Below are positions 19,892 to 57,060 of a stretch of DNA of 64,000 bases, piece after piece. Both the position numbers and the translations under genes were made by a program. This DNA is from Alphaproteobacteria bacterium (GTDB lineage Bacteria; Pseudomonadota; Alphaproteobacteria; UBA11073). Every line of letters starts with the position of its first letter. Within the stretch, counting starts at the first letter, position 1. The notes below the pieces were generated by a model. It did not search any database. It saw only the letters and a program-made list of their open reading frames with translations, and had not been told where the DNA came from. The stretch is taken from positions 1,645,639 to 1,709,638 of the forward strand of contig CBDFFW010000001.1 of assembly GCA_965246945.1 (NCBI GenBank), in the 5' to 3' direction.

Positions 19892-21361
19892 ATGTTTCCG
19901 CCTGCTGATCCCACCACAGATCAAGACGATAAATTCCATGAAGAATGTGGGGTGTTTGCTGTGTGGCGGCACCCAGATGCGGCAGCGTTGACCGCATTGG
20001 GGCTGCATGCATTGCAGCACCGGGGGCAAGAAGCGTGCGGGATTATTACGCATGACCCCGCCAATCATTTACGTAAATTCCACATGCATCGTGCACTTGG
20101 CCTGGTCGGCGACAATTTCAATAAACCCAATGTGATTGCCACCCTGCCCGGCACATCTGCCATCGGTCATAACCGTTATGCCACCACGGGCGAAACCGCC
20201 TTGCGCAATGTGCAGCCGCTTTATGCCGATTTTGATTTTGGCGGCTTCGCACTCGCCCATAACGGCAATCTGACCAATGCGCTGACTTTGCGCAAAGAAT
20301 TGGTGCAAGCCGGTGCCTTATTTCAATCCTCCAGCGATACTGAAACGATTATTCAATTGATGGCGCGCAGCAAGGGCGAAGTGCCAGAGCGGTTGATTGC
20401 CGCATTGCAGGGCGTGCAAGGTGCATATTCGATTGTCGCGTTGCATGCCGGCGGCATTATCGGCGTGCGCGATCCCAACGGCGTGCGGCCGCTGGTGTTG
20501 GGCATGTTAAACGATACCTATATTATGGCATCCGAAACCTGCGCGCTCGATATCGTGGGCGCGACCTATCTACGTGATATTGAACCCGGCGAAATGGTCA
20601 CTATTAGCGAAGCTGGTTTGCAAAGCTTCAAACCTTTCCGTCCGCGCGCCAGCCGGTTTTGTATTTTCGAATATGTTTATTTCGCGCGACCCGATACGCA
20701 GCTGGAAGGGCAATCGGTTTATAACACCCGCAAACAAATCGGCGTCGTGCTCGCCGCCGAAGCGCCGGTGGATGCGGATGTGATTGTACCCGTGCCGGAT
20801 AGCGGCGTGCCGGCCGCTTTAGGCTTTGCACAGGCCGCCGGTATTCCCTTTGAATATGGCATTATTCGCAACCATTATGTCGGCCGCACTTTTATCGAAC
20901 CCACCTCGCAAATCCGCCATTTGGGCGTGAAATTGAAGCACAATGCCAATCCGATTATCATTAATGGAAAGCGCGTGGTGCTGGTGGATGACAGCATTGT
21001 ACGCGGCACCACCAGCCGCAAAATTGTCGATATGGTGCGCGCCGCTGGCGCCACCGAAGTGCATATGCGCATCACCGCCCCGCCGATCAAGCATAGCTGT
21101 TACTACGGCATCGACACGCCGGAAGAATTTGACTTGCTCGCCCATAAAATGAGCGTGGCGGAGATGACGGAATATCTGAATTTAGATAGCCTAGCCTTTA
21201 TTTCCTTAGACGGCCTGCACCGCGCCGTCACCGGTGTGCGGCGCGATATCGTCACCATGCGCCATTGCGATGCGTGCTTCAGCGGCGATTACGCCATCCC
21301 CCTGGTCGACCGCGATGTAACGAATGCCAGCGAAACGCAGTTGCGCGCTGCGCATGGGTAA
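19892..21361 (+). CDS. purF: Amidophosphoribosyltransferase
   Basis: Ntn Cys in ECGVFAV after a propeptide, PRTase motif VVLVDDSIVRGTT, and C-terminal Cys ligands for the Fe-S cluster. Confidence 0.95.
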   Translation: MFPPADPTTDQDDKFHEECGVFAVWRHPDAAALTALGLHALQHRGQEACGIITHDPANHLRKFHMHRALGLVGDNFNKPNVIATLPGTSAIGHNRYATTGETALRNVQPLYADFDFGGFALAHNGNLTNALTLRKELVQAGALFQSSSDTETIIQLMARSKGEVPERLIAALQGVQGAYSIVALHAGGIIGVRDPNGVRPLVLGMLNDTYIMASETCALDIVGATYLRDIEPGEMVTISEAGLQSFKPFRPRASRFCIFEYVYFARPDTQLEGQSVYNTRKQIGVVLAAEAPVDADVIVPVPDSGVPAALGFAQAAGIPFEYGIIRNHYVGRTFIEPTSQIRHLGVKLKHNANPIIINGKRVVLVDDSIVRGTTSRKIVDMVRAAGATEVHMRITAPPIKHSCYYGIDTPEEFDLLAHKMSVAEMTEYLNLDSLAFISLDGLHRAVTGVRRDIVTMRHCDACFSGDYAIPLVDRDVTNASETQLRAAHG

Positions 21362-21371
21362 AAGATATAAA

Positions 21372-22532
21372 ATGCCTTTTAATTTTAATGAAACCGATCT
21401 AATTGGTACGCCTTTCACATTAGGTCAACTTTATGAAGCTCAGCATATCCTAGAATATCATTTAAATGAAGTTGGCCCTGAATGGTTAAAATATCCTACA
21501 GGAGTAGTTGGTGATTATTGGAGAAAAGGAGGCACCGAGGCCATCTGCTTTTTCATCGGAATATCGTTACAGTTAAAAACTTTATTAAAAAAAACTTCAG
21601 ATGATACAAGATATTTAATTAATGAAAAATTACTCAATTTATTTAAGCAAAGAAAAAATAATCAGTTTTATGAAGCTCACATAGAATGGTCCGTATTAGA
21701 TATGATTGCTTTAAGAGCTATATCAATTGATATTGAACCTTTAAGTTTTGGCCCAGATTGTCGTGTATGCACACCATTTGGAAATTATTTTGCAGAGATA
21801 ACAGTATGTACCCCAAAAAAATTTATCTTACTAAATAACTCTTCCAAAATTTTAATAGACAGTTTTGTAGACCAAGCTAATAAAACTTTGTTTAATTCAG
21901 AAATTTTTCGTGAAATTCAGGTTACAAAATTAGGTATTTCTCAATTAATTAGTTTAAAATATAACGATGTAAAAAATATCCTTTATCAAGTTACTTTTAA
22001 TTCTACAGGTGAAATTAAAATTCCTGTAACTGACAGGACGGTTCATATTTTTTGGAATTCAGTGACTAGTTTGAAAAAAAAATTATTTTATTGGCCTGAT
22101 TCCATATTATCTTCGTCACATCATATTAAAGCGTTACAACCTCCCTTTATTTCAGAGACAAAAAAATACATTCCATTAATAGCTGTTTACACAAGTTTAG
22201 AGATTGAGCAATATTCAAACGAAATAATTAAAGCTTTATATAAAAAATTTAAAGATAAGAAATATCAACGCCAAAGTAATGAACCTTTTTACTTGATAAT
22301 GCATATGAATATTGGCAACCAAGTTAATCCTGAAGTAATTCTGAATTTGATAGACCGAAGAATTTGGCCCAATCCGACATATGATTGGATTAGTGGTATT
22401 GGACTTTATTTTCCTTCTTTTGCTTCCGAAGCCTACAAAGCACCTCCTATAATGTTTCACTCTAATAACTTTAATGCAAAACATCCTATACCTCCTGGCT
22501 GTATAGAATATTTTAATAATATGCATAATTAA
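21372..22532 (+). CDS. Hypothetical Asn/Lys/Ile-rich protein in an AT-rich islet beside the tRNA
   Basis: About 387-aa frame starting MPFNFNETDL just after the purF stop. Codon composition is strongly AT-biased relative to neighbours. No motif recognised. Confidence 0.5.
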   Translation: MPFNFNETDLIGTPFTLGQLYEAQHILEYHLNEVGPEWLKYPTGVVGDYWRKGGTEAICFFIGISLQLKTLLKKTSDDTRYLINEKLLNLFKQRKNNQFYEAHIEWSVLDMIALRAISIDIEPLSFGPDCRVCTPFGNYFAEITVCTPKKFILLNNSSKILIDSFVDQANKTLFNSEIFREIQVTKLGISQLISLKYNDVKNILYQVTFNSTGEIKIPVTDRTVHIFWNSVTSLKKKLFYWPDSILSSSHHIKALQPPFISETKKYIPLIAVYTSLEIEQYSNEIIKALYKKFKDKKYQRQSNEPFYLIMHMNIGNQVNPEVILNLIDRRIWPNPTYDWISGIGLYFPSFASEAYKAPPIMFHSNNFNAKHPIPPGCIEYFNNMHN

Positions 22533-23064: not shown

Positions 23065-24456
23065 GTGCAAAAAATTAAACTACCTATCTGGTTGCTGGTG
23101 CTGTGTCTTGCGGCGCTATCTTTAAGCTGGCAGACCGCGCATTTAAAAACCCGCACGATTAAAGATTATGATCAATTACTGTATCTGCCGATTGCGCATG
23201 ATCTAGCCACTACAGGCATATTTACCGATGGCCGGTTCACCGATTTAACCCAAAATAATGCAGGCCGTGCCGGTATGTTTATCGCCCCGCTTTATCCCGC
23301 TCTCATTGCGGGCTTAAGCAAAATGGATACTCGGCTGGCAGCCACGCTGGTCTGTTCCGCGACCAAAAGCGATCCGGCGATTGCGGAATGCCCACTTGAT
23401 TTAGGGATTTTGCGGCCGGTTCAATTAATTTTCGCAATGGTAACCTTATTGCTCCTCTGGCAAACCGTTTTTTTTATTACCAGCAGTCCTGTTGCGGCAT
23501 GGAGCGGGCTGTTCATTGCCTGTTTACTATGCCGTGACTATGCCGAATTTGCCAATGTGGCGATGACGGAGGCAATTGTTCTGCCACTGTTTGCGGCGTT
23601 TAGCTGGTCGCTGATTAAAACCATTCAACAGCAAAAATTATCGCTGGCGGCTATCACCGGCTTGCTGCTGGGTTTCAGTAGCCTCGCGCGGCCGGAATAT
23701 ATTTATTTGGCCGATGGTTTTGTGGCGCTGACACTTCTCGCCTTTATTTGCCGCCGCCCCAACTATGCCAAGTTAGCGGCCATAATTGGGCTGACTGGTT
23801 TGCTGGTTACCGCGCCCTGGCTGCTGCGTAATTGGTTATTGTTTCATACGGCGGCGATGACCGAAAGCTATGCCGGTTTTAATCTGGCCCAGCGCGTGAC
23901 CTATGAAATGATGACCTGGCGTGAATGGTGCGCTGGCTGGCTGTTTTATCTGCCGGATTTTGGCGACCGGCTGGCGCATTGGTTGTTCAATCCAGCCGAT
24001 TTCACGCGGCTGGATTATGACGGGCGGCCGGATACATTTTATCAAATTGGGTTTAAAATTACCGCGCCGGAAAGTTTGGCGGCTGCTGGCGGCGCAGCGC
24101 ACCAAGTTGGTTATTTGCTTCGCCATTATGCCCTGCCGGATCCGGTGAAATATTTGGCGGTAACGCTGCTGCTCAGCTGGCGCGGGTTATGGATTGGGAA
24201 ATATTTCAGTTTATTAACCGCCCCTTTTCTTTTGTGGTTTGGCGTGCGCAGTATTAATCGCAAAGATGCAGCAGCATTGGCCTTGTTAATCCCACCCTTG
24301 CTGTTATTAGGCTTGCATGGTGCAGTCTCCAATAATATGCCGCGTTATAATCTGATCCTGGTGCCTGCGCTGGCTACTGCCATCGGTGCTTTGCTCGGGC
24401 CATGGTTGCAAAAGCTATGGCAAAACCGGCGTAACCGTTCTAAATTAACACCATGA
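23065..24456 (+). CDS. Polytopic membrane glycosyltransferase, GT39/ArnT-like (PMT_2 type); GTG start
   Basis: About 11 predicted TM helices with an N-terminal periplasmic loop, the typical ArnT/PMT-like architecture. Family assignment comes from topology and pattern only. Confidence 0.55.
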   Translation: MQKIKLPIWLLVLCLAALSLSWQTAHLKTRTIKDYDQLLYLPIAHDLATTGIFTDGRFTDLTQNNAGRAGMFIAPLYPALIAGLSKMDTRLAATLVCSATKSDPAIAECPLDLGILRPVQLIFAMVTLLLLWQTVFFITSSPVAAWSGLFIACLLCRDYAEFANVAMTEAIVLPLFAAFSWSLIKTIQQQKLSLAAITGLLLGFSSLARPEYIYLADGFVALTLLAFICRRPNYAKLAAIIGLTGLLVTAPWLLRNWLLFHTAAMTESYAGFNLAQRVTYEMMTWREWCAGWLFYLPDFGDRLAHWLFNPADFTRLDYDGRPDTFYQIGFKITAPESLAAAGGAAHQVGYLLRHYALPDPVKYLAVTLLLSWRGLWIGKYFSLLTAPFLLWFGVRSINRKDAAALALLIPPLLLLGLHGAVSNNMPRYNLILVPALATAIGALLGPWLQKLWQNRRNRSKLTP

Positions 24457-28851: not shown

Positions 28852-28959
28852 ACCTCATCCTGAGGAGCATCGTAGATGCGTCTCGAAAGATGCTCCAGCG
28901 GAATCTCCTTTAAGTATCCTTCGAGACACCCTGTATTACCGCTCATCAAAATGAGGTAA
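28852..28959. repeat. MITE-like palindromic repeat, family A, copy 1 (right end degenerate)
   Basis: Reads ACCTCATCCTGAGGAG...GCGTCTCGAAAGATGCTCCA...GTATCCTTCGAGAC...ATGAGGT. It shares the 16-bp terminal inverted repeat and inner inverted repeat with copies at 49455 and 49903. It fills the ligA-kinase spacer. Confidence 0.7.
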
Positions 28960-44902: not shown

Positions 44903-45535
44903 TTACACGGCATGCGATCGCTGGGTTGAAGACATAGCTGAATTGAAAGTCACTTTCAGTTTCAGCCGCAACCGGTCTAAGCCATTCGTGCCAAGTTTGG
45001 GGTTATAACGTTTGGTTGGCATTTCAAATGCTTTACTCAAACCGCCAGCAAGTCCGGCTAACAATGATGGCGTTCTGAGAGCAGCTATTCTCGGCAATAA
45101 AGTTTGCTGGCTAGATAGTGATTTTACGCCGTTAGTTTTTACCGGTTGCCCATCGTGCTTGGGAGCAAGTTGATTAATTTGAATGAAAACCGGCTTTGGC
45201 GATTGCCGCATATTTTGCACCACGCGCTGCAACCAAACCCCTAATTCACCAGCCATTTGATTGGCGGTTAGTTCCAACATCAACGGCTGATCGGGTTTCT
45301 GCTGCTGCCAAGTTTGAATCAGCGCGGCTAAATTCTGTTCAAGCCTGCTCAGCCAAATGGCCTCATTGGTTGAAACTGCATTTGGATCGTTATCTAAAAG
45401 ATTATCTGTGGCTTTTATTTGGGTTCGGTAGTGAGAGATATAGGGCAGACCTTGCGCCGTGTAGGCAATAACAGGTTCGCATTCCAGCAACTGATTGCCA
45501 GTATCAGGGATAAGATCGTCTTCTCTTATATCCAT
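44903..45535 (-). CDS. Hypothetical protein, divergent from the pseudokinase gene
   Basis: Uninterrupted 210-aa frame. No signal peptide or motif recognised. Confidence 0.4.
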   Translation of the reverse strand: MDIREDDLIPDTGNQLLECEPVIAYTAQGLPYISHYRTQIKATDNLLDNDPNAVSTNEAIWLSRLEQNLAALIQTWQQQKPDQPLMLELTANQMAGELGVWLQRVVQNMRQSPKPVFIQINQLAPKHDGQPVKTNGVKSLSSQQTLLPRIAALRTPSLLAGLAGGLSKAFEMPTKRYNPKLGTNGLDRLRLKLKVTFNSAMSSTQRSHAV

Positions 45536-45637: not shown

Positions 45638-47638
45638 GTGATGAGCGACTCGGGCGCCCGTCCACGTGTGCGGCGTTTTCATATTGAGCTGGATAACCCG
45701 CTGCCTGCGTTTAATCAGGGCGGGGCGCAGGCTTATGCGGTCACCAATAACACCGAATACCGCGATACGATTTATGCCTTGTTGTGCCCCAGTAATATGC
45801 CATTGCGTTTGGAAATGGGCATATCCCTGCAAAATACCACCACTCACCATTTTCATAATTTAATCGATTTCGAAATCGTCCATGGCAGTGGTTTGACGGA
45901 AGAATATATGGGGTTGATCCTGCCCAAACCATTGGGCCGGCCGCTAGTGGCCGATCTCAATACCCATTTCATCCCCTGGAAGGAAGAGGAACTGCGGCAA
46001 TATCTGATTAAGCCGATGGTGGAAGTGCTAAATACCTTGCATGACCGTGTTTTATCGCATGGCAGTATTTCGCCGCTGCAAATGTGGCGGGAAGGTGCGG
46101 CACAACCGGTTAAACTAGCGCAATGCTTCACCACGCTGCCTGGGTTAAATCAGCCGGTATTTTTTGAAACCATCGAACGCGCCATTGCCCAACCCTTTGC
46201 CAAAGGGGACGGGCGTACAGAAGACGATTTGTTCAGCTTGGGTGCCACCATTTATTTTTTAGCCGTGGGCCGTAACCCCCTGGCGCATCTATCGCCTGAA
46301 GAATTAATCAGAGCGCGCATGGAAATCAGCACGCCGGTTTTGTTGTTAAACACCGCGCGCGTGCCCAGCAGTTTATCTGAACTGGTAAAGGGTTTGTTAT
46401 CGGATCAACAGCGTTCACGCCTGACGATCCGCGATGTGATGGATTGGTGCGATGGTCAGCGCCTGGTGCCCAAACAACCGGTTTCCGTTGGGAAAGCCAA
46501 ACGCAGTATCATTTTTAACGGGCAGGAATTTCTAAAACCAACATTATTGGCGCAAGCGCTGGCCAGCGCGCCGGAAGAAGCCATTAAATTTGTTTTGGGC
46601 CCTGATTTTCTACGCTGGTGCCAACGCAGCGGCGCCATTGATGTTGCGCTATATCAAAAATTGGCAGAGGTGTTGGGCAGTTCCGAAAATGGTAAATCTC
46701 CGGCGGTGACCTTAACCCAGGTGATTGCCTGTTTAGATCCCGCCGGCCCTTTGCGTTATAAAGAATTTAGTTTTGGCCTGGCTGGTATTGGCACCGCTGC
46801 CATGCTCGCATTTTTACAAAACAACGCAAATTTAAAAAACGCCGTGGCAGAAATTGTGCAGAGCGATTTGCCCAGTTTTTGGGCCGGCCTGCCCGGCAAC
46901 AGTTTTGCGTTTAACACCACCATTGCCCAGGAATTATCGGCGCTGCGCCATTTAATTACGCAAACCCAGCCAGGTTATGGGTTGGAGCGCATGCTGTATA
47001 CGCTGAATCGGCAATTGCCTTGCCAATCCGAAACCTGCCATGGTTTTTATGCCCTGCAATCGCGTGATTTATTACGGGCCTTGGATGGTTACATTCAAAA
47101 AGGCCAGCGCCCACAGGAATTGCTGGACCGGCATAGCGCCGCATTTTTAGGCAGCCGCCATAACAGCCGGTCGGATGAAAATTTGCTGAAATTGCTTAAT
47201 CCCAGCCAGGAATTGGGTGAGCGGCGCATTGGCCTGTTGAAGTTACTGGCGACCCTGCAAGCGCGGTTTAAACTGGGGCCGTTAACCCATTTAACCGGCT
47301 GGCTGGCCGAATTGGTGCGGCCGTCTTTGGATAATTTACACAGCCAAACCATTAAAGAAGACATCGCCAAGTCTTTGCTGCGGGTCGCCAAACATGGTGA
47401 TTTGAACGAATTGCTGGCCTTGCTGGATAGCGGCAGTTTGCAATTGCGCGATCAGCGTTTATTTAAAAGCGCACGCCAAGAATATCAAAATTTGCAAAAG
47501 CAAATTAACGAGATCGATCAATGGGTCGCGCAAAAAGATGCGCTGGGCCATGCCGTCGGCCGGCAAGTGGCCAGTGTTACCGCTGTGGTTCTGGCGCTGT
47601 TAGCCACAGTGGTTATCATGCTGGCACAGAAATTTTAA
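45638..47638 (+). CDS. Tail-anchored membrane protein with an N-terminal degenerate protein-kinase-like (pseudokinase) domain
   Basis: Residues ~20-270 follow the Hanks kinase subdomain order with catalytic residues replaced. Beta3 RDTIYALL lacks the Lys. The catalytic loop is HGSISPLQM in place of HRDxKPxN. The Mg site is QCF in place of DFG. An activation and P+1 segment FFETIERA is followed by DDLFSLGATIYFLAVGRNPL, the subdomain IX signature. The C-terminal helical region ends in a TM helix VASVTAVVLALLATVVIMLAQKF. Confidence 0.6.
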   Translation: MMSDSGARPRVRRFHIELDNPLPAFNQGGAQAYAVTNNTEYRDTIYALLCPSNMPLRLEMGISLQNTTTHHFHNLIDFEIVHGSGLTEEYMGLILPKPLGRPLVADLNTHFIPWKEEELRQYLIKPMVEVLNTLHDRVLSHGSISPLQMWREGAAQPVKLAQCFTTLPGLNQPVFFETIERAIAQPFAKGDGRTEDDLFSLGATIYFLAVGRNPLAHLSPEELIRARMEISTPVLLLNTARVPSSLSELVKGLLSDQQRSRLTIRDVMDWCDGQRLVPKQPVSVGKAKRSIIFNGQEFLKPTLLAQALASAPEEAIKFVLGPDFLRWCQRSGAIDVALYQKLAEVLGSSENGKSPAVTLTQVIACLDPAGPLRYKEFSFGLAGIGTAAMLAFLQNNANLKNAVAEIVQSDLPSFWAGLPGNSFAFNTTIAQELSALRHLITQTQPGYGLERMLYTLNRQLPCQSETCHGFYALQSRDLLRALDGYIQKGQRPQELLDRHSAAFLGSRHNSRSDENLLKLLNPSQELGERRIGLLKLLATLQARFKLGPLTHLTGWLAELVRPSLDNLHSQTIKEDIAKSLLRVAKHGDLNELLALLDSGSLQLRDQRLFKSARQEYQNLQKQINEIDQWVAQKDALGHAVGRQVASVTAVVLALLATVVIMLAQKF

Positions 47639-47648
47639 GGGACAAATC

Positions 47649-48122
47649 ATGGCCAAAGAAAAAGCCGCAAAACCGGTTAAAGCCGGTGCCGAAAATAAAA
47701 CCGGTATGGCCTGGCTCTTGGTCTGGCCGATTATTTTGGCGATGAGTGCGGTTTTCCCGCCGCTATTTATTTTCGTGGCCGGGGTGATCCCCACTTTGGT
47801 CGCGCGGTTTGTCGATCCCCATCCCGAACGCTCGCTCACCGTTTGTGCCGGCGCAGGCAACGCGGTCGGCTGCGTTTACTGGCTGATCTGGACAGTCACC
47901 CATCAATATTTAAGCTGGCAAAGCATTTTGGGATTAATGTTATTGCCAACCACCTGGTTAGTTTTGCTCGGCGCAACTGGCGCGGGCTGGGTGGTGTGGC
48001 TAATAATACCGTCCATGGTATCCGCCCAGGTAACTCAGCATCAACTGGCCATACGCGCACGGCTGGTCAAAGCCCAAGAGAAAATGAGCAAAGAATGGAA
48101 TCAAGGCATCAATGCGCCTTAA
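47649..48122 (+). CDS. Small polytopic membrane protein (about four TM helices), translationally coupled to the pseudokinase gene
   Basis: Begins 10 nt after the upstream stop. Hydrophobic segments AWLLVWPIILAMSAVFPPLFIFVAGVIPTLVA, VGCVYWLIWTV, ILGLMLLPTTWLVLLGATGAGWVVWLII. Confidence 0.5.
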   Translation: MAKEKAAKPVKAGAENKTGMAWLLVWPIILAMSAVFPPLFIFVAGVIPTLVARFVDPHPERSLTVCAGAGNAVGCVYWLIWTVTHQYLSWQSILGLMLLPTTWLVLLGATGAGWVVWLIIPSMVSAQVTQHQLAIRARLVKAQEKMSKEWNQGINAP

Positions 48123-48170: not shown

Positions 48171-48198
48171 TGACAATATGGTATTAATTTTTATTATC
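48171..48198 (+). promoter_or_regulatory. Putative sigma70 promoter for the Tat-lipoprotein gene
   Basis: TTGACA, a 16-nt spacer, TATTAT. It lies ~30 nt upstream of RBS AAGGAG and the ATG at ~48229. Confidence 0.4.
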
Positions 48199-48228
48199 TA
48201 TATTAGACAACCATTAAGGAGAAACAAA

Positions 48229-49170
48229 ATGACTAGCGAAAAAATTAATTTAACAAGAAGAAAAGTCTTAGTATTATCAGGCGTCGGCCTTGTATCACTG
48301 CTAACTGGTTGTGGTGGTAGCACAAAAACAGTTAACAATTATCCTCCTGCAACAACAATATCTCCAAATTCAAATAGCAATGCCAATTCGAACCAAGCCC
48401 CCTCTATAGCTTCCATCGATAAAACCAATACCCGTTTGCAAAGCTTAATGGGCCAAAGTTCAACCGACTCCGTTGCGGTGCAAATGCAAGCGCGTGATAC
48501 TGTGATTGCTTATCAAAATGACATTGATGCTGTAATCCGGCCTGCTTTTACCGGCAATGATCCAAATCATAATTTAAGTGCATTGAAAGCGCTCACTACC
48601 ACAAACAAAACATCAATTATTATTACTGTGGAAATAGATCCAACTGATCCATCGGTGACCTTTGACGGTCAGCAAACTGTGCATTTTGCCGCCAGTGCTG
48701 TTCATTATAATATTTCGGCAGATAATGAATTCGCTTCAGGCGCCAAAGATGCCGAAGACTTTACTGACCATGGTTTAGTTGTTCGCATTAATAAGGGATT
48801 CCCAGGCGTAAATTATTATTATGATGATATTTACCAAGATAACCGCACTGGCGATCCGACCGATCGTGTTGAACGGCATACTGCCAATCTTCTTGTGGCA
48901 ACCCCTAATTACATTGAGCAAGGTGCACGCTTTAATAAATATTCGGCGAGCGAACAAAGACAAGCTTTGACTGGGGTAATAAAAATTTTGGAGGCTGTGC
49001 AAAATGGCAAAATCAAGTTGAATGCAGATAACACAGTCACCATGAATGGCCAAACCAGCAGAACACTGACACTTAGCGCCAAAGACGTGGGTGTCGAAAT
49101 CGGCTTTGGCAAAATCAGTGGTACTATTTCTAAAACAATGTCAGCATTGCCGTTATCATTTAACGGGTAA
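48229..49170 (+). CDS. Lipoprotein with a twin-arginine-like signal, Asn/Ser/Thr-rich
   Basis: MTSEKINLTRRKVLVLSGVGLVSLLTGCGGS gives a TRRKVL Tat-like motif plus lipobox LTGC. Low-complexity NSNSNANSN linker, then a globular domain. AT-rich. Confidence 0.55.
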   Translation: MTSEKINLTRRKVLVLSGVGLVSLLTGCGGSTKTVNNYPPATTISPNSNSNANSNQAPSIASIDKTNTRLQSLMGQSSTDSVAVQMQARDTVIAYQNDIDAVIRPAFTGNDPNHNLSALKALTTTNKTSIIITVEIDPTDPSVTFDGQQTVHFAASAVHYNISADNEFASGAKDAEDFTDHGLVVRINKGFPGVNYYYDDIYQDNRTGDPTDRVERHTANLLVATPNYIEQGARFNKYSASEQRQALTGVIKILEAVQNGKIKLNADNTVTMNGQTSRTLTLSAKDVGVEIGFGKISGTISKTMSALPLSFNG

Positions 49171-49222: not shown

Positions 49223-49454
49223 GACAATTTTGTCTATCATGATTACATTCCTATTAATCTGAATTGGCTGGCCAGCAATTCAGGAAGGTTATGACCTTAA
49301 GGGCGCGGGTCCGGCAAACAGCCTGTGCGAGCAATCAATACATCCCTTAAACGAGCCGGTCGATGTTTGCAAAAATCTCCCGGGAGTGTTTTTAAACCAT
49401 TCAATTAAAAGCAAAATGCATTATCCTTATTCTTAAAATAGCAATTTAGATATT

Positions 49455-49562
49455 ACTTCATCCTGAGGAGTGCCGCAGGCACGTCTCGAAGGGATGCTTA
49501 ACCTGGGTTATCTCACTGGAGTATCCTTCGAGACGCTGCTAAGCAGCTCCTCAGGATGAGGT
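49455..49562. repeat. MITE-like palindromic repeat, family A, copy 2
   Basis: ACTTCATCCTGAGGAG...GTCTCGAAGGGATGCT...AGTATCCTTCGAGAC...CTCCTCAGGATGAGGT. Both 16-bp terminal inverted repeats are intact. It ends 1-2 nt from the GIY-YIG stop codon. Confidence 0.7.
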
Positions 49563-49563
49563 T

Positions 49564-49863
49564 CTATAAGTGTTTCTTTTTATATCTTTCAGCCAGCATT
49601 GGCAGCAATTCATATTCTTTGCGGATCAATGCTTCTTTCTTATCGCGTCGCCAACCTTTAACTTGGCGCTCTGCTGCAATGGCATCCGTTATATTCAGAA
49701 AATTTTCAGCGAATACCAGGCGAACTGGGCGCCGCTTGAATGTATAACACGTTGGATGAAAACCCTGTTCATGCTGGCTCATCCGCAATTCAAATTCGCC
49801 GCGCGTCGTACCTACATAATAACTGTTATCCGCACAATGCAAAATATAGAGCCATGCGGACAT
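49564..49863 (-). CDS. GIY-YIG nuclease family protein (small YhbQ/UPF0213 type), intact
   Basis: MSAWLYILHCADNSYYVGTTRGEFELRMSQHEQG contains the GIY...YVG motifs and an Arg. The C-terminal ...KGWRRDKKEALI is typical of this family. 99 aa. Confidence 0.8.
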   Translation of the reverse strand: MSAWLYILHCADNSYYVGTTRGEFELRMSQHEQGFHPTCYTFKRRPVRLVFAENFLNITDAIAAERQVKGWRRDKKEALIRKEYELLPMLAERYKKKHL

Positions 49864-49902
49864 CCGCTAATCTTATTAAATAACTAGAATGTTTACAACT
49901 TA

Positions 49903-50010
49903 CCTCATCCTGAGGAGCGGCTGAAAGCCGTGTCTCGAAAGATGCTCCAACCAGGTACCTAGGTAAGCATCCTTCGAGACGAACGTTGAGCGTTCTCCTC
50001 AGGATGAGGT
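49903..50010. repeat. MITE-like palindromic repeat, family A, copy 3 (best preserved)
   Basis: ACCTCATCCTGAGGAG cggctgaaagccg TGTCTCGAAAGATGCTCC ... GCATCCTTCGAGAC ... TCCTCAGGATGAGGT. Perfect 16-bp terminal inverted repeats and nested inner inverted repeats. Confidence 0.75.
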
Positions 50011-50077
50011 TGGTGCAACATCATTTGCATCAAAATCCTTGCCTGCTCGCTGCCTTTACCGGTAAGCGTAAGGCAGC

Positions 50078-52272: not shown

Positions 52273-53502
52273 ATGTTTAAAATCATCACCCTGGCAATAG
52301 TAACCCTGTTGCCAGGGTTTGTTTTTGCGGCGGATAATCCAGCCAGTGATACCTGTTCTGAGCTGCAGCACAACATTCAATTACTCGATGATATTGGTAA
52401 GTTACGGCCTAAACAAACGAATAAAGCGGCGATCAATGCCAACAATGATATAACCGATTATATCGGCCAATCCCGTAGCACCTTAACTGCAGCGCTTGAT
52501 GCGGCGCAAAATTGCGAAGATGCCAATCGCGTGGAACGGGCGTTGCAGCATTTAAGCTGGGCGGCTTATTGGCTACATTATGATACGCATGTGCCAAGTG
52601 ACGCGCAAACCATGTTGCGCGCGACCACTGATTATTTGGCCGTGGCCAAGGAAATTATCCAGCATCAACCCGAAGTGTTAACACCCGCATTTTATCACAG
52701 TGATTTCCGACAAAATTTGGATACGGTTTATAAATACCGCACCATTGCATTGCAGGCGCTTGGCCAACCAACGGCAGTGACTGCAATTTTGGCGGAACAG
52801 GCGCAAATGGGCTTTTGTGCCGCCCAATGGCGTTTGGCCGAAAATTATACGCGTGCGCAGCAAAATCAACTGGCAGCGCAAACCTATCAAACCATGCTGC
52901 ATAATCCGGCCTGCCGCAGCAGTGACAGCACCAATCATGATTTTGCCATGCCTGGTTTGCGGCTGGTTTATTTATATGAAAAGATGGGACAGCCGGAAAA
53001 CAGCGCAGCGGCTTTGCAAAAACAATTTGCCATTAATCAGGCCATGACCAAACAGATCGGTTGCGGGAGCGCGGCACCGCCTGGTGAGTTCGAAACCATT
53101 TACCGCTTAGCGGCAATACAAGCAAAAAATAAACCTGAACAGGCGTTTGAGCTTAGCCAATATGGTTTGGCGCGCGCTACTGTCAGCAGTGAATTTGCCG
53201 ATAGCAAACGACAAGCTGTAGATGAAGTGGCGCAACCTTCATGGCAAAAACTGAAAAATATATGGTCTCGCTGGACCCATAAAGCCGAACCTGGCGCTGG
53301 TTATGCGCATGAATATTTGCCAAAGCTGAATAAGCTAAAACAAAATTTAGCCGCCAAATTGCCGCTTGAAACACAAACCCGTTTAACTATACAAGCCACT
53401 GTGAAAGCGTTAAATAGTTGTGCAGATGGTTTAACCGATCCGCAATGGCTGCAGCAATACGATCCGGATTATCAGCCTTTTATTCCAGTTCCAGAAGAAT
53501 GA
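52273..53502 (+). CDS. Secreted hypothetical protein, probably helical-repeat
   Basis: Signal peptide MFKIITLAIVTLLPGFVFA. 409 aa, Ala/Gln-rich helical segments. No catalytic motif recognised. Confidence 0.45.
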   Translation: MFKIITLAIVTLLPGFVFAADNPASDTCSELQHNIQLLDDIGKLRPKQTNKAAINANNDITDYIGQSRSTLTAALDAAQNCEDANRVERALQHLSWAAYWLHYDTHVPSDAQTMLRATTDYLAVAKEIIQHQPEVLTPAFYHSDFRQNLDTVYKYRTIALQALGQPTAVTAILAEQAQMGFCAAQWRLAENYTRAQQNQLAAQTYQTMLHNPACRSSDSTNHDFAMPGLRLVYLYEKMGQPENSAAALQKQFAINQAMTKQIGCGSAAPPGEFETIYRLAAIQAKNKPEQAFELSQYGLARATVSSEFADSKRQAVDEVAQPSWQKLKNIWSRWTHKAEPGAGYAHEYLPKLNKLKQNLAAKLPLETQTRLTIQATVKALNSCADGLTDPQWLQQYDPDYQPFIPVPEE

Positions 53503-54536
53503 TCAAGCTGAGTATTCAGCCAACTTAAAGCTTTTTCCCTGGCCCCGATGCCTAATAATTGCGTGGTGTGTTGGCGCACCAAGGCCAGTAGCCAAGGTTG
53601 CTGCTGCAATGTTAAACGCCAGCTTTTATCTCTCAGCAGGTTACGGCGATAACCGTGATTAAACAGCCAATGTTGTTGCCAGATAGCCCAGGTTTCCGGC
53701 GGTAATTCCGGCAATGCGGTTTGCCAAGCCTGCAACAAACCGGCGATACAGTGCGCCAGTTGCTGGTCGGTTTGGGTCTGGCCCCAAAATGGGATTTTTA
53801 ATTTTTGCGGTGGGCTGGTTTGCGGTTCCGCAATCCGGCGTGGCAGGGTAACAGTTTTGCTGTTTATATTTTCTGAATGTTTAGCGTTAATCAAATCAAT
53901 ATTAGGCGTCCCTACCACTGGCCGCATTGGGGCAAAGGGTAGCAAATGTTCCTGCAAAGCCGCGTGCATGGCCACACCCGCATGCTGGCTGCGGCGCGAT
54001 TTGATATTGGGCATCACCAAGGCTGACGCCACATCCGCCGCCGTAAACCCAAAATCATGCGCCGCCGCTGGCAAGGCATGATCATAAGGATGCGCCAGTG
54101 CTTTCATTTGCGGCTCCCCCTCCATAATCCGCCAGCTGGCCAAATGGAGCGAGCGCCAGCCGATATAATCGGCCAATTCCGGTTGATAATGCAGGCTGGT
54201 GGGACGGCTGTAATGCGCCAGGCTGAGTTGGTTCAGGCGGGAAAAACTATCAATTTCATCCGTTGGCGCACACAGCAAATGCAGCACCGCCTGGTTTTCG
54301 ATCCAGCTGGGCCAATGCAAAATAATTCGCAGCAACCGCTGATCAACCCGCGTAATGCGCGCCAGCGAATGGATTTGCGTGGAGGTAATAATAGCCAGCG
54401 GCGCGCCATCTGGTTTAACCGCCAATAAGACCCCGCGCAAAGTGCCGGTGCCTGCCATGGCTAATTCATATTCCAAACTTTCCCGCTGGGCGAAAGTGAA
54501 ACTTTCTGAAACAGCGAGATGGGTGGGCTTAGGCAC
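53472..54536 (-). CDS. Hypothetical protein; its 3' end overlaps the convergent gene by ~31 nt
   Basis: Uninterrupted 354-aa frame. No motif recognised. Divergent from guaB. Confidence 0.45.
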   Translation of the reverse strand: MPKPTHLAVSESFTFAQRESLEYELAMAGTGTLRGVLLAVKPDGAPLAIITSTQIHSLARITRVDQRLLRIILHWPSWIENQAVLHLLCAPTDEIDSFSRLNQLSLAHYSRPTSLHYQPELADYIGWRSLHLASWRIMEGEPQMKALAHPYDHALPAAAHDFGFTAADVASALVMPNIKSRRSQHAGVAMHAALQEHLLPFAPMRPVVGTPNIDLINAKHSENINSKTVTLPRRIAEPQTSPPQKLKIPFWGQTQTDQQLAHCIAGLLQAWQTALPELPPETWAIWQQHWLFNHGYRRNLLRDKSWRLTLQQQPWLLALVRQHTTQLLGIGAREKALSWLNTQLDHSSGTGIKG

Positions 54537-56124: not shown

Positions 56125-57060
56125 TTGCGGATGGATAAGGCAGATTTATTATTAACCGATACGACATTGTACCAAAATACCAATACTGCTGTTCGCCACA
56201 TGCTGGCCAAATTATTGGCAGCTGGTTACGCCGCCGCTGCTAGTGATGAAATTGTGATTAAAGATTATGGCTGCGGCCAAGGTAATTTAGGAAAATTAAT
56301 TGTTGATACATTAAAAGATGCGGGTAAACCCATTCGGTACATGGCTTATGATGCAGAATTGATTTTGTTACATAATACCGCCGAATTATGGACAGGACAT
56401 TCTGATATTCATACTTCATTTGAAAAGGCTGATATTTTTGACCGGTATTTTTTGATGGGACAAGCCAGCGACCCAGCCGATATTATTATTGCTTCGCACG
56501 TATTATATAATTCTGGTAAAGAATTTGCGGCTTTTATCAAAGCTTGTTTGAACGGTTTAAAGCCAAATGGCTTAACGCTATTTATTAATGATAATGTCGA
56601 AGCAGAAATTCAGATGCTTAGAAGAAAATATGGAATAGGTGGCATTCCATCGGCAATCACGCCGTTGGAAAACGTATTTTACCAAAATGGCATTCAATAT
56701 TTTTACGCCGATATTGCCAATGCCAATGAACCATTTGTGATTGATCAAAATAGGTATGTTGCGTGTGCTTCAACAACGCAAAAAGATGCTCCTGCGAATA
56801 CACAAACAGCAGCAATTGTGCAAGAAGTGGTGGATATGATCGCAGCCGGAGAAGTTTCATGCTTGGCTTTGCCTGAACTGATAGAGTTATTTTGTAAAAT
56901 ATATGGTGCCGCGCCGCAACCTGTGCAGCACCGTATTCATCTGGCATTACCGCCTTTGGGCCACCGGAATTTTGCCATGCTTAAAGTGCTGGAAACTGCT
57001 TTTAATTTTGATCACATTCCCGCTGAAAATTTAGGCGTAGCGCCGCCTACACCGCTTTAA
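56125..57060 (+). CDS. Class I SAM-dependent methyltransferase-like protein, substrate unknown
   Basis: Motif I VIKDYGCGQGNLG, an acidic residue after beta2 (YDAE), motif II-like IIIASHVLY. AT-richer than neighbours. Its 3' end overlaps cheR convergently. Confidence 0.5.
   Translation: MRMDKADLLLTDTTLYQNTNTAVRHMLAKLLAAGYAAAASDEIVIKDYGCGQGNLGKLIVDTLKDAGKPIRYMAYDAELILLHNTAELWTGHSDIHTSFEKADIFDRYFLMGQASDPADIIIASHVLYNSGKEFAAFIKACLNGLKPNGLTLFINDNVEAEIQMLRRKYGIGGIPSAITPLENVFYQNGIQYFYADIANANEPFVIDQNRYVACASTTQKDAPANTQTAAIVQEVVDMIAAGEVSCLALPELIELFCKIYGAAPQPVQHRIHLALPPLGHRNFAMLKVLETAFNFDHIPAENLGVAPPTPL

Follow-up and report, generated by a model that had tools for sequence, protein, structure and literature searches.

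What could a membrane protein with a kinase fold do once its catalytic residues have been replaced? The question is raised by a single open reading frame in a 64-kb window (the whole stretch of 64,000 nucleotides of alphaproteobacterial DNA that was analysed), from which a first-pass annotation had predicted a tail-anchored protein whose Hanks-type kinase fold is catalytically dead and precedes a helical region, an architecture that it could assign to no described family. That observation was confirmed overall and its core reading is supported by the analysis presented here. The cataloguing of bacterial pseudokinases has only just begun, and a function is known for almost none of them.

The frame lies exactly at the coordinates and on the strand claimed for it, as derived from the ORF list, and encodes 666 aa from a GTG at 45638, with a TAA stop at 47636-47638 (Table 1). 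A database copy, P0001, matches it at 100% and has 665 aa, hence its start corresponds to the ATG at 45641. The peptides quoted for it are all found in the translation, i.e. IYALL at aa 45-49, HGSISPLQM at 141-149, LAQCF at 160-164 and DDLFSLG at 196-202. Promoter and terminator scans performed no better than on shuffled sequence, and an Rfam scan of 44.8-50.1 kb yielded nothing credible.

Table 1. Features of the pseudokinase locus, in window coordinates, with the basis of each assignment or a remark.
Feature	Position	Strand	Basis or remark
Predicted tail-anchored pseudokinase gene	45638..47638	+	ORF list; full-length alignment with homologues
Kinase-fold (pseudokinase) domain, aa ~10-283	45665..46486	+	
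Putative beta3 strand IYALLC, aa 45-50	45770..45787	+	Strand position in model
Catalytic-loop remnant HGSISPLQM (= H-R-D-x-K-x-x-N), aa 141-149	46058..46084	+	HMMER, hhalign
beta8 and DFG remnant VKLAQCF, aa 158-164	46109..46129	+	Column counts
Subdomain IX/helix F signature DDLFSLGATIYFLAVGRNPL, aa 196-215	46223..46282	+	Sole Pfam Pkinase-matching stretch
Family-specific helical domain, aa 284-598	46487..47431	+	Two small beta-hairpins, 291-298 and 372-379
Loop-rich stretch with invariant polar residues, candidate functional site	46973..47146	+	Column counts, model
Juxtamembrane stalk helix, aa 599-638	47432..47551	+	Continuous with TM helix
Predicted C-terminal tail anchor, aa 639-666	47552..47635	+	Hydropathy scan
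Shine-Dalgarno-like AAGGGA	47637..47642	+	Read from sequence; overlaps pseudokinase stop
Partner gene, predicted 157-aa polytopic membrane protein	47649..48122	+	Homologous to next gene downstream elsewhere

Kinase fold and catalytic residues

The resemblance to kinases is far above chance level. The family profile, compared with the PDB sequences, matched MAPKAPK3 with E 8.8e-12, and hhalign aligned the kinase region of the family to PknB with a probability of 98.1% and E 1.2e-13. PF00069 was matched by 15 of the 20 homologues tested (best E 3.3e-10). The profile search proposed as a check of the kinase assignment is therefore significant for the family profile, whereas the window protein alone stays under the Pfam cut-off, with 19.8 bits (E 5.6e-4) against a gathering threshold of 31.7 and a match that covers only aa 194-268. 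The AF2 model of the pseudokinase (pLDDT 89.1, pTM 0.82) bears out the Hanks-type fold: it is bilobal, with a beta-rich N-lobe (strands 14-21, 30-37, 45-50, 77-81 and 90-96, helix C 58-64) and a helical C-lobe, and can be superimposed on solved kinases, Foldseek giving TM ~0.7 to ASK1, MPS1 and ULK1. The C-lobe is the best-conserved part of the family, which is compatible with a scaffold or docking role and equally with a cryptic active site. The subdomain IX signature is retained, as had been stated, with D197 and G202 present in the window protein (conserved in 99% and 96% of the family, respectively) and the Pfam Pkinase match limited to that stretch. Elsewhere in the domain, the APE-like E177 and R261 of subdomain XI are also kept (96% and 98% in the family).

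The catalytic positions were followed in an alignment of 171 sequences, i.e. the window protein and 170 homologues. At the beta3 Lys position the window protein has L49, and the family column reads V91/I48/L18, with no Lys in 171 sequences. A47, the counterpart of the VAIK Ala, is 92% conserved; the strand position together with this conserved Ala suggests that IYALLC is the VAIK equivalent. In the catalytic loop H141 is retained, and S143, S145 and Q148 occupy the Asp, Lys and Asn positions, respectively; HMMER and hhalign pair the family stretch HRAIRPDN with HRDVKPEN or HRDVKPAN. Position 143 is A100/G23/S22/N15 in the family, and Asp is again absent from all 171 sequences. The claimed loss of the VAIK Lys and the HRD Asp thus stands (L49 and S143), and since neither residue occurs anywhere in the alignment, it is a family trait and not a one-off.

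Concerning the DFG motif, said to be replaced by QCF, the beta8 strand position in the model agrees with that register, whereas HMMER and hhalign favour K159-L160-A161, aligning L160-A161 (L-G in the family) to the F-G of DFG. An acidic residue is absent from VKLAQCF of the window protein in both registers. The family consensus at this remnant is V-V-L-G-[D/E]-C, where the window protein has K159, A161 and Q162; the column counts are L146 at position 160, G167 at 161 and E85/D77 at 162, so that 162 of 171 sequences have Asp or Glu beside the DFG remnant and only two have Gln. Position 148 is Asn in 163 of 171 and Gln only in the window protein and P0002, and the losses marked by Q148 and Q162 are confined to this lineage and P0002, its closest relative. 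The statement that every catalytic residue is substituted hence applies to the window protein but not to the family, about 95% of which keep the Asn and the Asp/Glu. Because two of the four residues were lost in a lineage-specific way, the lineage-specific loss that the first-pass annotation had named as counting against its reading is found in part. The activation segment is short, with 15 residues between Q162 and E177. As read from its sequence, the protein fits the operational definition of a pseudokinase (a kinase fold without at least one of Lys, Asp and Asp) and is predicted to be dead for phosphotransfer.

Helical domain and tail anchor

The region between the kinase domain and the hydrophobic segment is almost entirely helix in the AF2 model, in line with the helical region described after the kinase fold, and forms a family-specific domain at aa 284-598. 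No known fold or family matched these residues, also among solved structures. A designed armadillo repeat, which came up when the C-terminal profile was compared with the PDB sequences, was rejected as a weak match only. Within the domain, two hairpin-plus-helices units, 286-368 and 369-445, were compared by hhalign as a possible internal repeat, which gave E 0.0056 with a probability of 6.5%, W327 pairing with W415. The loop-rich stretch holds G446, G448, E450, R451, Y454, C462, S464, D497, H499 and F503, each 91-100% conserved in 169 homologues, all kept in the window protein and placed in loops and helix N-termini of the model. Overall, the window protein departs from the family at 6 of 24 conserved positions of the kinase domain but at none of the 17 in the C-terminal part.

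One helix covers 599-665 in the model; D605 is invariant in it, and F609, A612 and Y616 are conserved. As expected from the single C-terminal TM helix originally proposed, the hydropathy scan gave 639-666 as the sole hydrophobic segment (maximum 2.73), with no other TM segment and no N-terminal signal. Nearly all family sequences (168 of 171) have such a segment at their end, followed by a median of 3.5 residues. A stripe of small residues with a period of four, G641, A645, A649 (Ser in most members) and A653, runs along the segment, and these four positions are G/A/S/T/C in 92-100% of the sequences. The protein thus has the features of a tail-anchored membrane protein, membrane insertion being predicted from hydropathy.

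Family distribution and partner gene

A full HMMER scan puts the family at no fewer than 1,302 clusters at 50% identity, hence the rarity ascribed to bacterial pseudokinases does not apply to it. A word-indexed homology search had returned 24 homologues, and 14 with a C-terminal profile, both of which badly understate the family. A degenerate DNA pattern, built by hand over G446...S464 and run on species-representative genomes, gave matches of which 120 out of 120 were true members, nearly all labelled Alphaproteobacteria. Members occur in Azospirillum, Magnetospirillum, Rhodospirillum, Micavibrio, Pelagibius and others, and family and partner are spread over Rhodospirillales-type Alphaproteobacteria. 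No Pfam or NCBIfam model covers the pseudokinase architecture, which upholds the claim that it is not a described family, and literature searches found no paper on the pseudokinase family. The family is ancient and large, and is retained even in small genomes.

The chromosomal position is of a housekeeping kind. Of 75 loci, 53 have purA upstream, and 28 of 70 have a convergent rpoH downstream; the neighbourhood in the window comprises glyA, sufCD, hisZ, purA, sucCD and guaB. Loci outside the purA context, with PhaC, amidase or GGDEF/EAL neighbours, displayed no further conserved linkage. These arrangements show that the gene is inherited vertically among housekeeping neighbours.

The gene directly downstream of the pseudokinase is the same in 90 of 96 species loci. 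Its product has a Lys-rich N-terminus, about four hydrophobic segments by hydropathy and a charged C-terminal helix, and its invariant or nearly invariant residues are P48, T49, D56, G68, N71, G74, G113, P121 and W150. Against Pfam its best match was a meaningless one to a viral family (E 0.17), and NCBIfam and PADLOC gave nothing. The two genes are 10 nt apart in the window, with the AAGGGA 6 nt upstream of the partner ATG, a placement consistent with a single operon and coupled translation; in other genomes the gap is 1-10 nt or gives way to a 4-nt overlap. Across 42 species the pairwise distances of pseudokinase and partner correlate with r = 0.79, vs 0.50 with purA (partial correlation 0.72, permutation p = 0.001), although a shared rate or compositional drift can also produce such co-evolution between adjacent genes. 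From its position and these distances, the partner appears to be an obligate, co-evolving companion of the family.

Function of the pair

We consider it probable that the window protein is a non-catalytic kinase-fold protein and forms a two-protein complex in the inner membrane with its downstream partner, in which it acts as scaffold or sensor. The kinase-fold protein would be tethered by its C-terminal tail anchor to the cytoplasmic side of the inner membrane, and together with the small polytopic protein would make up one membrane complex, in which the 641/645/649/653 stripe may pack on the Gly/Asn-rich TM helices of the partner or, alternatively, on a second copy of itself. The cytoplasmic working part would then consist of the kinase-like C-lobe and the family-specific helical domain, where the invariant polar cluster E450/R451/Y454/C462/S464/D497/H499 is a putative binding site for a ligand or protein. 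In most members Asn148 and Asp/Glu162 may still permit metal or nucleotide to bind and so act as a conformational switch; the window lineage would have lost this ability, its protein being purely a scaffold or adaptor. The pair most likely has a core housekeeping function related to the membrane or envelope, since it persists in small genomes and in its ancestral chromosomal position. A wider proposal, which we regard as possible but doubtful, is that the pair represents an unrecognised core inner-membrane machine of Rhodospirillales-type Alphaproteobacteria, with the helical domain as a new ligand-sensing or catalytic module and the kinase-like domain as a nucleotide-gated switch in most lineages, fixed as a scaffold here.

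It is also conceivable, though we judge it unlikely, that the kinase fold here supports an active enzyme of an unconventional type, comparable to SelO, which catalyses AMPylation, or SidJ, which catalyses glutamylation. This alternative takes two forms: either residues that migrated within the cleft carry out catalysis, or the C-terminal Cys/Ser/Asp/His/Glu cluster constitutes a new catalytic site. Pseudokinases with new activities have precedents (reviewed in PMC12599244), and the family keeps Asn148 (163/171) and Asp/Glu162 (162/171), plus H141 and R145, as well as eight invariant polar residues in loops and helix N-termini of a C-terminal domain without known fold, including a GxG-x-ER turn, CxS and DRH. 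However, N148, R142, R145, W262 and the acidic residue at 162 have all been lost from the window protein, which nevertheless remains under purifying selection, so that its function here cannot depend on the cleft residues. Neither sequence nor fold shows similarity to any enzyme family, and in a nearly all-helical domain with a single conserved Cys a binding site fits as well as a catalytic one. By analogy with SelO and SidJ, the roughly 95% of members that keep two residues of metal-ligand type would leave room for an unconventional enzymatic activity family-wide; if real, the term scaffold would apply to the window lineage only.

Other readings draw on the gene order, on distant matches or on the divergence of this protein. 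A membrane-tethered regulator that holds or releases the heat-shock sigma factor RpoH (sigma-32), in an anti-sigma-like manner, is very unlikely: in 28 of 70 species loci rpoH is indeed the next gene downstream, in convergent orientation, even without purA upstream, and it often reaches to a few nucleotides from the partner stop or overlaps it, but convergent genes are not co-transcribed, as sigma/anti-sigma pairs usually are. Moreover, the linkage is missing in ~60% of loci, rpoH is not in the 64-kb window, the rpoH-rluD pair probably reflects old synteny, and no anti-sigma domain was found with Pfam or NCBIfam. It would be still more surprising if the protein belonged to an anti-phage defence or secretion system, like the MADS and BREX (e.g. 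PglW) kinases or EssB/YukC of type VIIb secretion, and we deem this extremely improbable. The MADS6 and PD-T4-6 kinase models match weakly (E 8.6e-5 to 4e-3), as does NCBIfam MAD6 (E 4.8e-4), and EssB/YukC offers the precedent of a membrane pseudokinase scaffolding a secretion machine (PMC12599244). These matches cover, however, the generic kinase C-lobe only (MAD6 reaches 18.8 bits vs a curated cut-off of 460), the gene keeps a fixed housekeeping position in more than 100 species and lies in no variable island, and no defence or secretion genes are consistently nearby; with only ~3 residues predicted past the membrane, there would be no extracytoplasmic domain as in EssB. The matches to PADLOC, MADS6 and LanL were rejected as generic kinase C-lobe similarity. 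Hardly credible, finally, is a decaying relic in a small genome, heading to a pseudogene, despite the 6 of 24 otherwise conserved kinase-domain positions at which the window protein deviates, among them W262L, unique among 171 sequences, and the changes N148Q and Q162, common only to P0002, and despite the contig of 1.79 Mb that carries P0001. The frame is full-length here and in a 60%-identical relative, and the ORF is intact in three related lineages; dN/dS is ~0.10 vs L129 (dN 0.139, dS 1.33), dN has the same value, 0.30, for the kinase half and the C-terminal half, none of the 17 conserved C-terminal residues is lost and the partner gene is intact. These rates argue that the pseudokinase is under purifying selection and still functional.

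Comparison with known kinases and pseudokinases

Seven bacterial pseudokinase families have been published (PMC12599244; bioRxiv 10.1101/2025.01.12.632604), and the motifs match none of them. The GLW family is similar in being mostly proteobacterial, in its Hanks-type fold, in the loss of the whole catalytic triad and in a hydrophobic residue in place of the beta3 Lys (PMC12599244; bioRxiv 10.1101/2025.01.12.632604). In GLW, Gly-Leu-Trp replaces HRD and a poly-Leu LLLL/W at beta3 replaces VAIK (PMC12599244), whereas the present family has H-R-A (H-G-S in the window protein), with H in 96% followed by R/G and then A/G/S/N. At beta3 it has F-A-L-V-C, or Y-A-L-L-C in the window protein, so that only the hydrophobic residue at the Lys position is common to both. 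As set apart by motif and description, GLW is also without a described helical accessory domain, tail anchor or partner gene.

EssB/YukC (PDB 6Z0F; PMC9600267, PMC12599244), a non-catalytic scaffold in a membrane complex, likewise begins with a cytoplasmic pseudokinase domain, in which the Gly-rich loop is degraded and the activation segment short, and has a single TM helix. EssB differs in its sizeable extracellular domain after the TM helix, its location in a T7SS cluster and its occurrence in Firmicutes; here, the predicted TM helix is at the extreme C-terminus, a cytoplasmic helical domain of ~315 aa lies in between and no secretion genes are nearby. ActPs3, the MviN (MurJ)-linked pseudokinase (PDB 3UQC; PMC12599244), is similarly membrane-associated, without Lys/Asp/Asp and with a shortened activation loop, and regulates a housekeeping envelope process through protein interactions (PMC12599244). 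It is, however, actinobacterial and fused to the MurJ flippase, whereas the present protein is a separate, apparently tail-anchored polypeptide with another accessory domain, for which no ActPs3-like link to peptidoglycan genes was found. From canonical bacterial Hanks-type kinases such as PknB (PDB 1MRU) it differs in having neither the beta3 Lys nor the catalytic Asp nor the Gly-rich loop, in its short activation segment, and in that its TM helix is not followed by an extracellular sensor domain of the PASTA or a similar type.

To the known set the family adds a helical domain unmatched among solved structures, what would be a true tail-anchor topology and an apparently obligate, co-evolving membrane partner. 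The window lineage has lost the last two residues of metal-ligand type and yet stays under purifying selection, in effect a natural experiment which shows that at least part of the function of the family is independent of Asn148 and Asp/Glu162. As the family is present in the tractable Azospirillum, Magnetospirillum and Rhodospirillum, its function is directly testable.

The kinase fold and its catalytic residues

The pseudokinase ORF has exactly the coordinates of the first-pass annotation, starts with GTG and encodes 666 aa, whereas an identical database copy (P0001, carried on a 1.79-Mb contig) has 665 aa, hence its annotated start is the ATG at 45641. The peptides quoted in that annotation were found at residues 45-49 (IYALL), 141-149 (HGSISPLQM), 160-164 (LAQCF) and 196-202 (DDLFSLG). 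The proposed Hanks-type fold is confirmed at the family level. The Pfam Pkinase model against the window protein alone is sub-threshold (19.8 bits, cut-off 31.7) and matches only residues 194-268, but a profile from 23 family members matches solved kinases with E 8.8e-12, pairing family HRAIRPDNL with HRDVKPENL. Moreover, hhalign of the family alignment (171 sequences: the window protein and 170 full-length homologues) against PknB yields a probability of 98.1% (E 1.2e-13), and the AlphaFold2 model derived from the family alignment is confident (pLDDT 89.1, pTM 0.82). Hence, the kinase resemblance is real.

The substitution of every catalytic residue, as originally described, holds for the window protein; across the family it extends only to the Lys and the HRD Asp. 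In the 171-sequence alignment the beta3 Lys equivalent, L49, is Val (91), Ile (48) or Leu (18), with Lys in none, and the HRD Asp equivalent, S143, is Ala (100), Gly (23), Ser (22) or Asn (15), with Asp in none; thus, both residues required for phosphotransfer are absent family-wide. In contrast, the catalytic-loop Asn equivalent, Q148, is Asn in 163/171 sequences, and Q162, adjoining the DFG remnant, is Glu or Asp in 162/171; only the window protein and P0002, its nearest relative, have Gln at these positions. Concerning DFG itself, the first-pass reading as Q-C-F agrees with strand beta8 of the model, whereas HMMER and hhalign pair family L160-G161 with F-G, giving K-L-A in the window protein; whichever register is used, no acidic residue occupies the site.

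Structural hallmarks are retained: H141 (96%), E177 at the APE position (96%), R261 (98%) and, as claimed for subdomain IX, D197 (99%) and G202 (96%). R57, directly before helix C, is 99% conserved across the family and may correspond to the distinctive C-helix arginine that is reported as a bacterial Ser/Thr kinase hallmark (bioRxiv 10.1101/2025.01.12.632604).

Helical domain and tail anchor

The model shows helices and two small hairpins for residues 284-598, followed by a single long helix (599-665), whose end is the sole hydrophobic segment (639-666), in line with the predicted helical region and single C-terminal TM helix. The C-terminal profile found no convincing match among PDB sequences. 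The anchor, kept in 168/171 sequences and followed by a median of 3.5 residues, shows a small-residue stripe of period 4, positions 641, 645, 649 and 653 being G/A/S/T/C in 92-100% of sequences. In membrane proteins such a stripe marks a specific helix-helix contact, not a passive anchor, a role that it may also play here.

Genomic context and the partner gene

The gene order is glyA, racemase, sufC, sufD, hisZ, purA, a 750-bp spacer, pseudokinase, a 157-aa polytopic membrane protein (the partner), a 330-aa orphan, sucC, sucD and, later, guaB. The partner, homologous to the same-position gene at other loci, lies in an operon arrangement, starting 10 nt past the pseudokinase stop with an AAGGGA site ahead. 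Among the matches listed, it is directly downstream of the pseudokinase in 90/96 species loci; purA precedes the pseudokinase on the same strand in 53/75, and rpoH is downstream and convergent in 28/70. Azospirillum copies lie in unrelated surroundings, the partner being the only shared neighbour. Since the partner is near-constant and the other neighbours vary, what is conserved is the pair of genes, in a housekeeping location that is ancestral.

Where present (L001, L003, L131, L133 and other loci), rpoH converges on the partner at very close range: the gap is 7 nt in L001 and 35 nt in L131, and in L133 the genes overlap by 4 nt. The 3' ends of both transcripts may therefore overlap. The pair is duplicated in some genomes, with one copy in the purA/rpoH context and the second at another site (L090 and L108, both from MAG JAEULB01). 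Most Azospirillum copies found are outside this context, as in Azospirillum sp. B2RO_4 (L041), whose copy is on a secondary replicon, the 742-kb 'chromosome 3'.

Co-evolution and selection

Across 42 species with pseudokinase, partner and purA all complete, pairwise distances of pseudokinase and partner correlate with r = 0.79, whereas either one with purA gives 0.50; controlling for purA leaves a partial correlation of 0.72 (permutation p = 0.001). Both evolve equally fast, with mean p-distances of 0.70 and 0.69 (purA, 0.30). Between the window and its relatives L129 and L130, purA is 89-93% identical, while pseudokinase identity is 60% to L130 and 67-79% to L129 (two HSPs). With dS near saturation, pseudokinase dN/dS against L129 is ~0.10. 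The two halves of the protein have equal dN, 0.30 each.

Among positions at least 90% conserved, the window protein departs at 6/24 in the kinase domain (N148Q, G161A, R189K, Y199F, G231S and W262L, the last unique to it) and at 0/17 in the C-terminal part (W327, P371, W415, G446, G448, E450, R451, Y454, C462, S464, D497, H499, F503, Q541, G587, D605, A612). This intact C-terminal set, together with the low dN/dS, indicates that the window protein is functional, and that in this lineage it can work without the kinase cleft's last metal-ligand-type residues.

Proposed function

We commit to a non-catalytic window protein, a tail-anchored scaffold or sensor subunit of an inner-membrane complex with the partner. 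Tethered by its anchor, the pseudokinase would pair physically with the co-translated polytopic partner, and the cytoplasmic helical domain would provide the working surface, the invariant polar residues of its loops and helix N-termini forming one candidate site. Typical family members, with the Asn and acidic residue kept, may bind nucleotide or metal.

An unconventional enzyme is unlikely, though the most credible competitor: selection is maintained in the window lineage despite Q148/Q162. A regulator of RpoH, which the convergent neighbour brings to mind, is improbable; neither rpoH nor rluD occurs within the 64-kb window. We give very little credence to a defence or secretion component, the pair sitting among housekeeping genes, and just as little to a decaying relic, given the purifying selection and the intact C-terminal positions.

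Relation to known families and distribution

An atlas of bacterial Ser/Thr kinases lists seven pseudokinase families, ActPs1-3, GLW, CP1, DYD and DLHK (bioRxiv 10.1101/2025.01.12.632604; PMC12599244). By description GLW is nearest, being proteobacterial, devoid of all three motifs and provided with a C-terminal TM; however, in place of its defining GLW and LLLL/W motifs the family has HRA and FALVC, and the window protein HGS and YALLC. EssB/YukC and MviN are functional analogies as membrane pseudokinase scaffolds, with unrelated architecture. In none of 20 homologues is the C-terminal domain covered by a Pfam or NCBIfam model, and our literature search found no publication on this family. We rate it a bacterial pseudokinase family not described before, as the first-pass annotation suspected. 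A new accessory domain, the tail-anchored topology and an obligate partner characterise it, and published motif descriptions set it apart from GLW.

A word-indexed search gave only 24 homologues, while an exhaustive HMMER scan gave 1,302 cluster representatives (E <=1e-30); the best 150 of the 1,302 have 614-782 aa, nearly all aligning end to end with the profile. A degenerate DNA pattern over the invariant G446...S464 stretch matched at least 120 species-representative genomes, with a true homologue in 120/120 listed. Among these listed matches nearly all are labelled Alphaproteobacteria, including Azospirillum, Nitrospirillum, Magnetospirillum, Phaeospirillum, Rhodospirillum, Oleisolibacter, Elstera, Pelagibius, Yunchengibacter, Micavibrio, Thalassospiraceae, Dongiaceae, Stellaceae, Rhodovibrionaceae and MAGs labelled Rickettsiales; for the few MAGs assigned elsewhere (Marinimicrobia, Anaerolineae, Bdellovibrionales), an artefact of binning or labelling is the probable explanation.

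Other features of the window

Positions of the features discussed
Feature	Coordinates	Strand	Size
Pseudokinase	45638-47638	+	666 aa
R57 codon	45806-45808	+	
Partner	47649-48122	+	157 aa
Spacer ORF	44903-45535	-	210 aa
Lipoprotein-like ORF	48178-49170	+	330 aa
Pfam-less ORF	21324-22532	+	311-463 aa (range of the five)
Pfam-less ORF	23065-24456	+	
Pfam-less ORF	52273-53502	+	
Pfam-less ORF	53472-54536	-	
Pfam-less ORF	56125-57060	+	
Palindrome, copy 1	49445-49567		~120 nt
Palindrome, copy 2	49892-50011		~120 nt
Site grouped with the palindrome	28853-28867		

The unusually long purA-pseudokinase spacer (~750 bp; elsewhere a median of ~220 bp in species loci among the matches listed) holds an ORF with no credible family match in Pfam, NCBIfam or PADLOC and is probably an orphan or non-coding; neither of the two closest relatives has a counterpart, and even their spacer DNA is not alignable. 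The 330-aa ORF, whose N-terminus is lipoprotein-like (LLTGC), lies in a low-GC stretch (0.42 against ~0.50), likewise has no family match in Pfam, NCBIfam or PADLOC and is missing in L129 and L130. In L130 the gene alignable to the window sucC begins 50 nt past the partner, and L129 has three short unannotated ORFs between them. The ORF looks like a lineage-specific insertion. Five further ORFs in the otherwise housekeeping window show no Pfam match at E 1e-5 or 1e-6.

Ahead of sucC, two intergenic copies of an imperfect palindrome lie ~447 nt apart, with arms ACYTCATCCTGAGGAG / CTCCTCAGGATGAGGT. Its 15-mer core is found 5 times in the window (chance expectation, 0.02), and related sequence is present in L129; the palindrome resembles a repeated element of the REP/MITE type.
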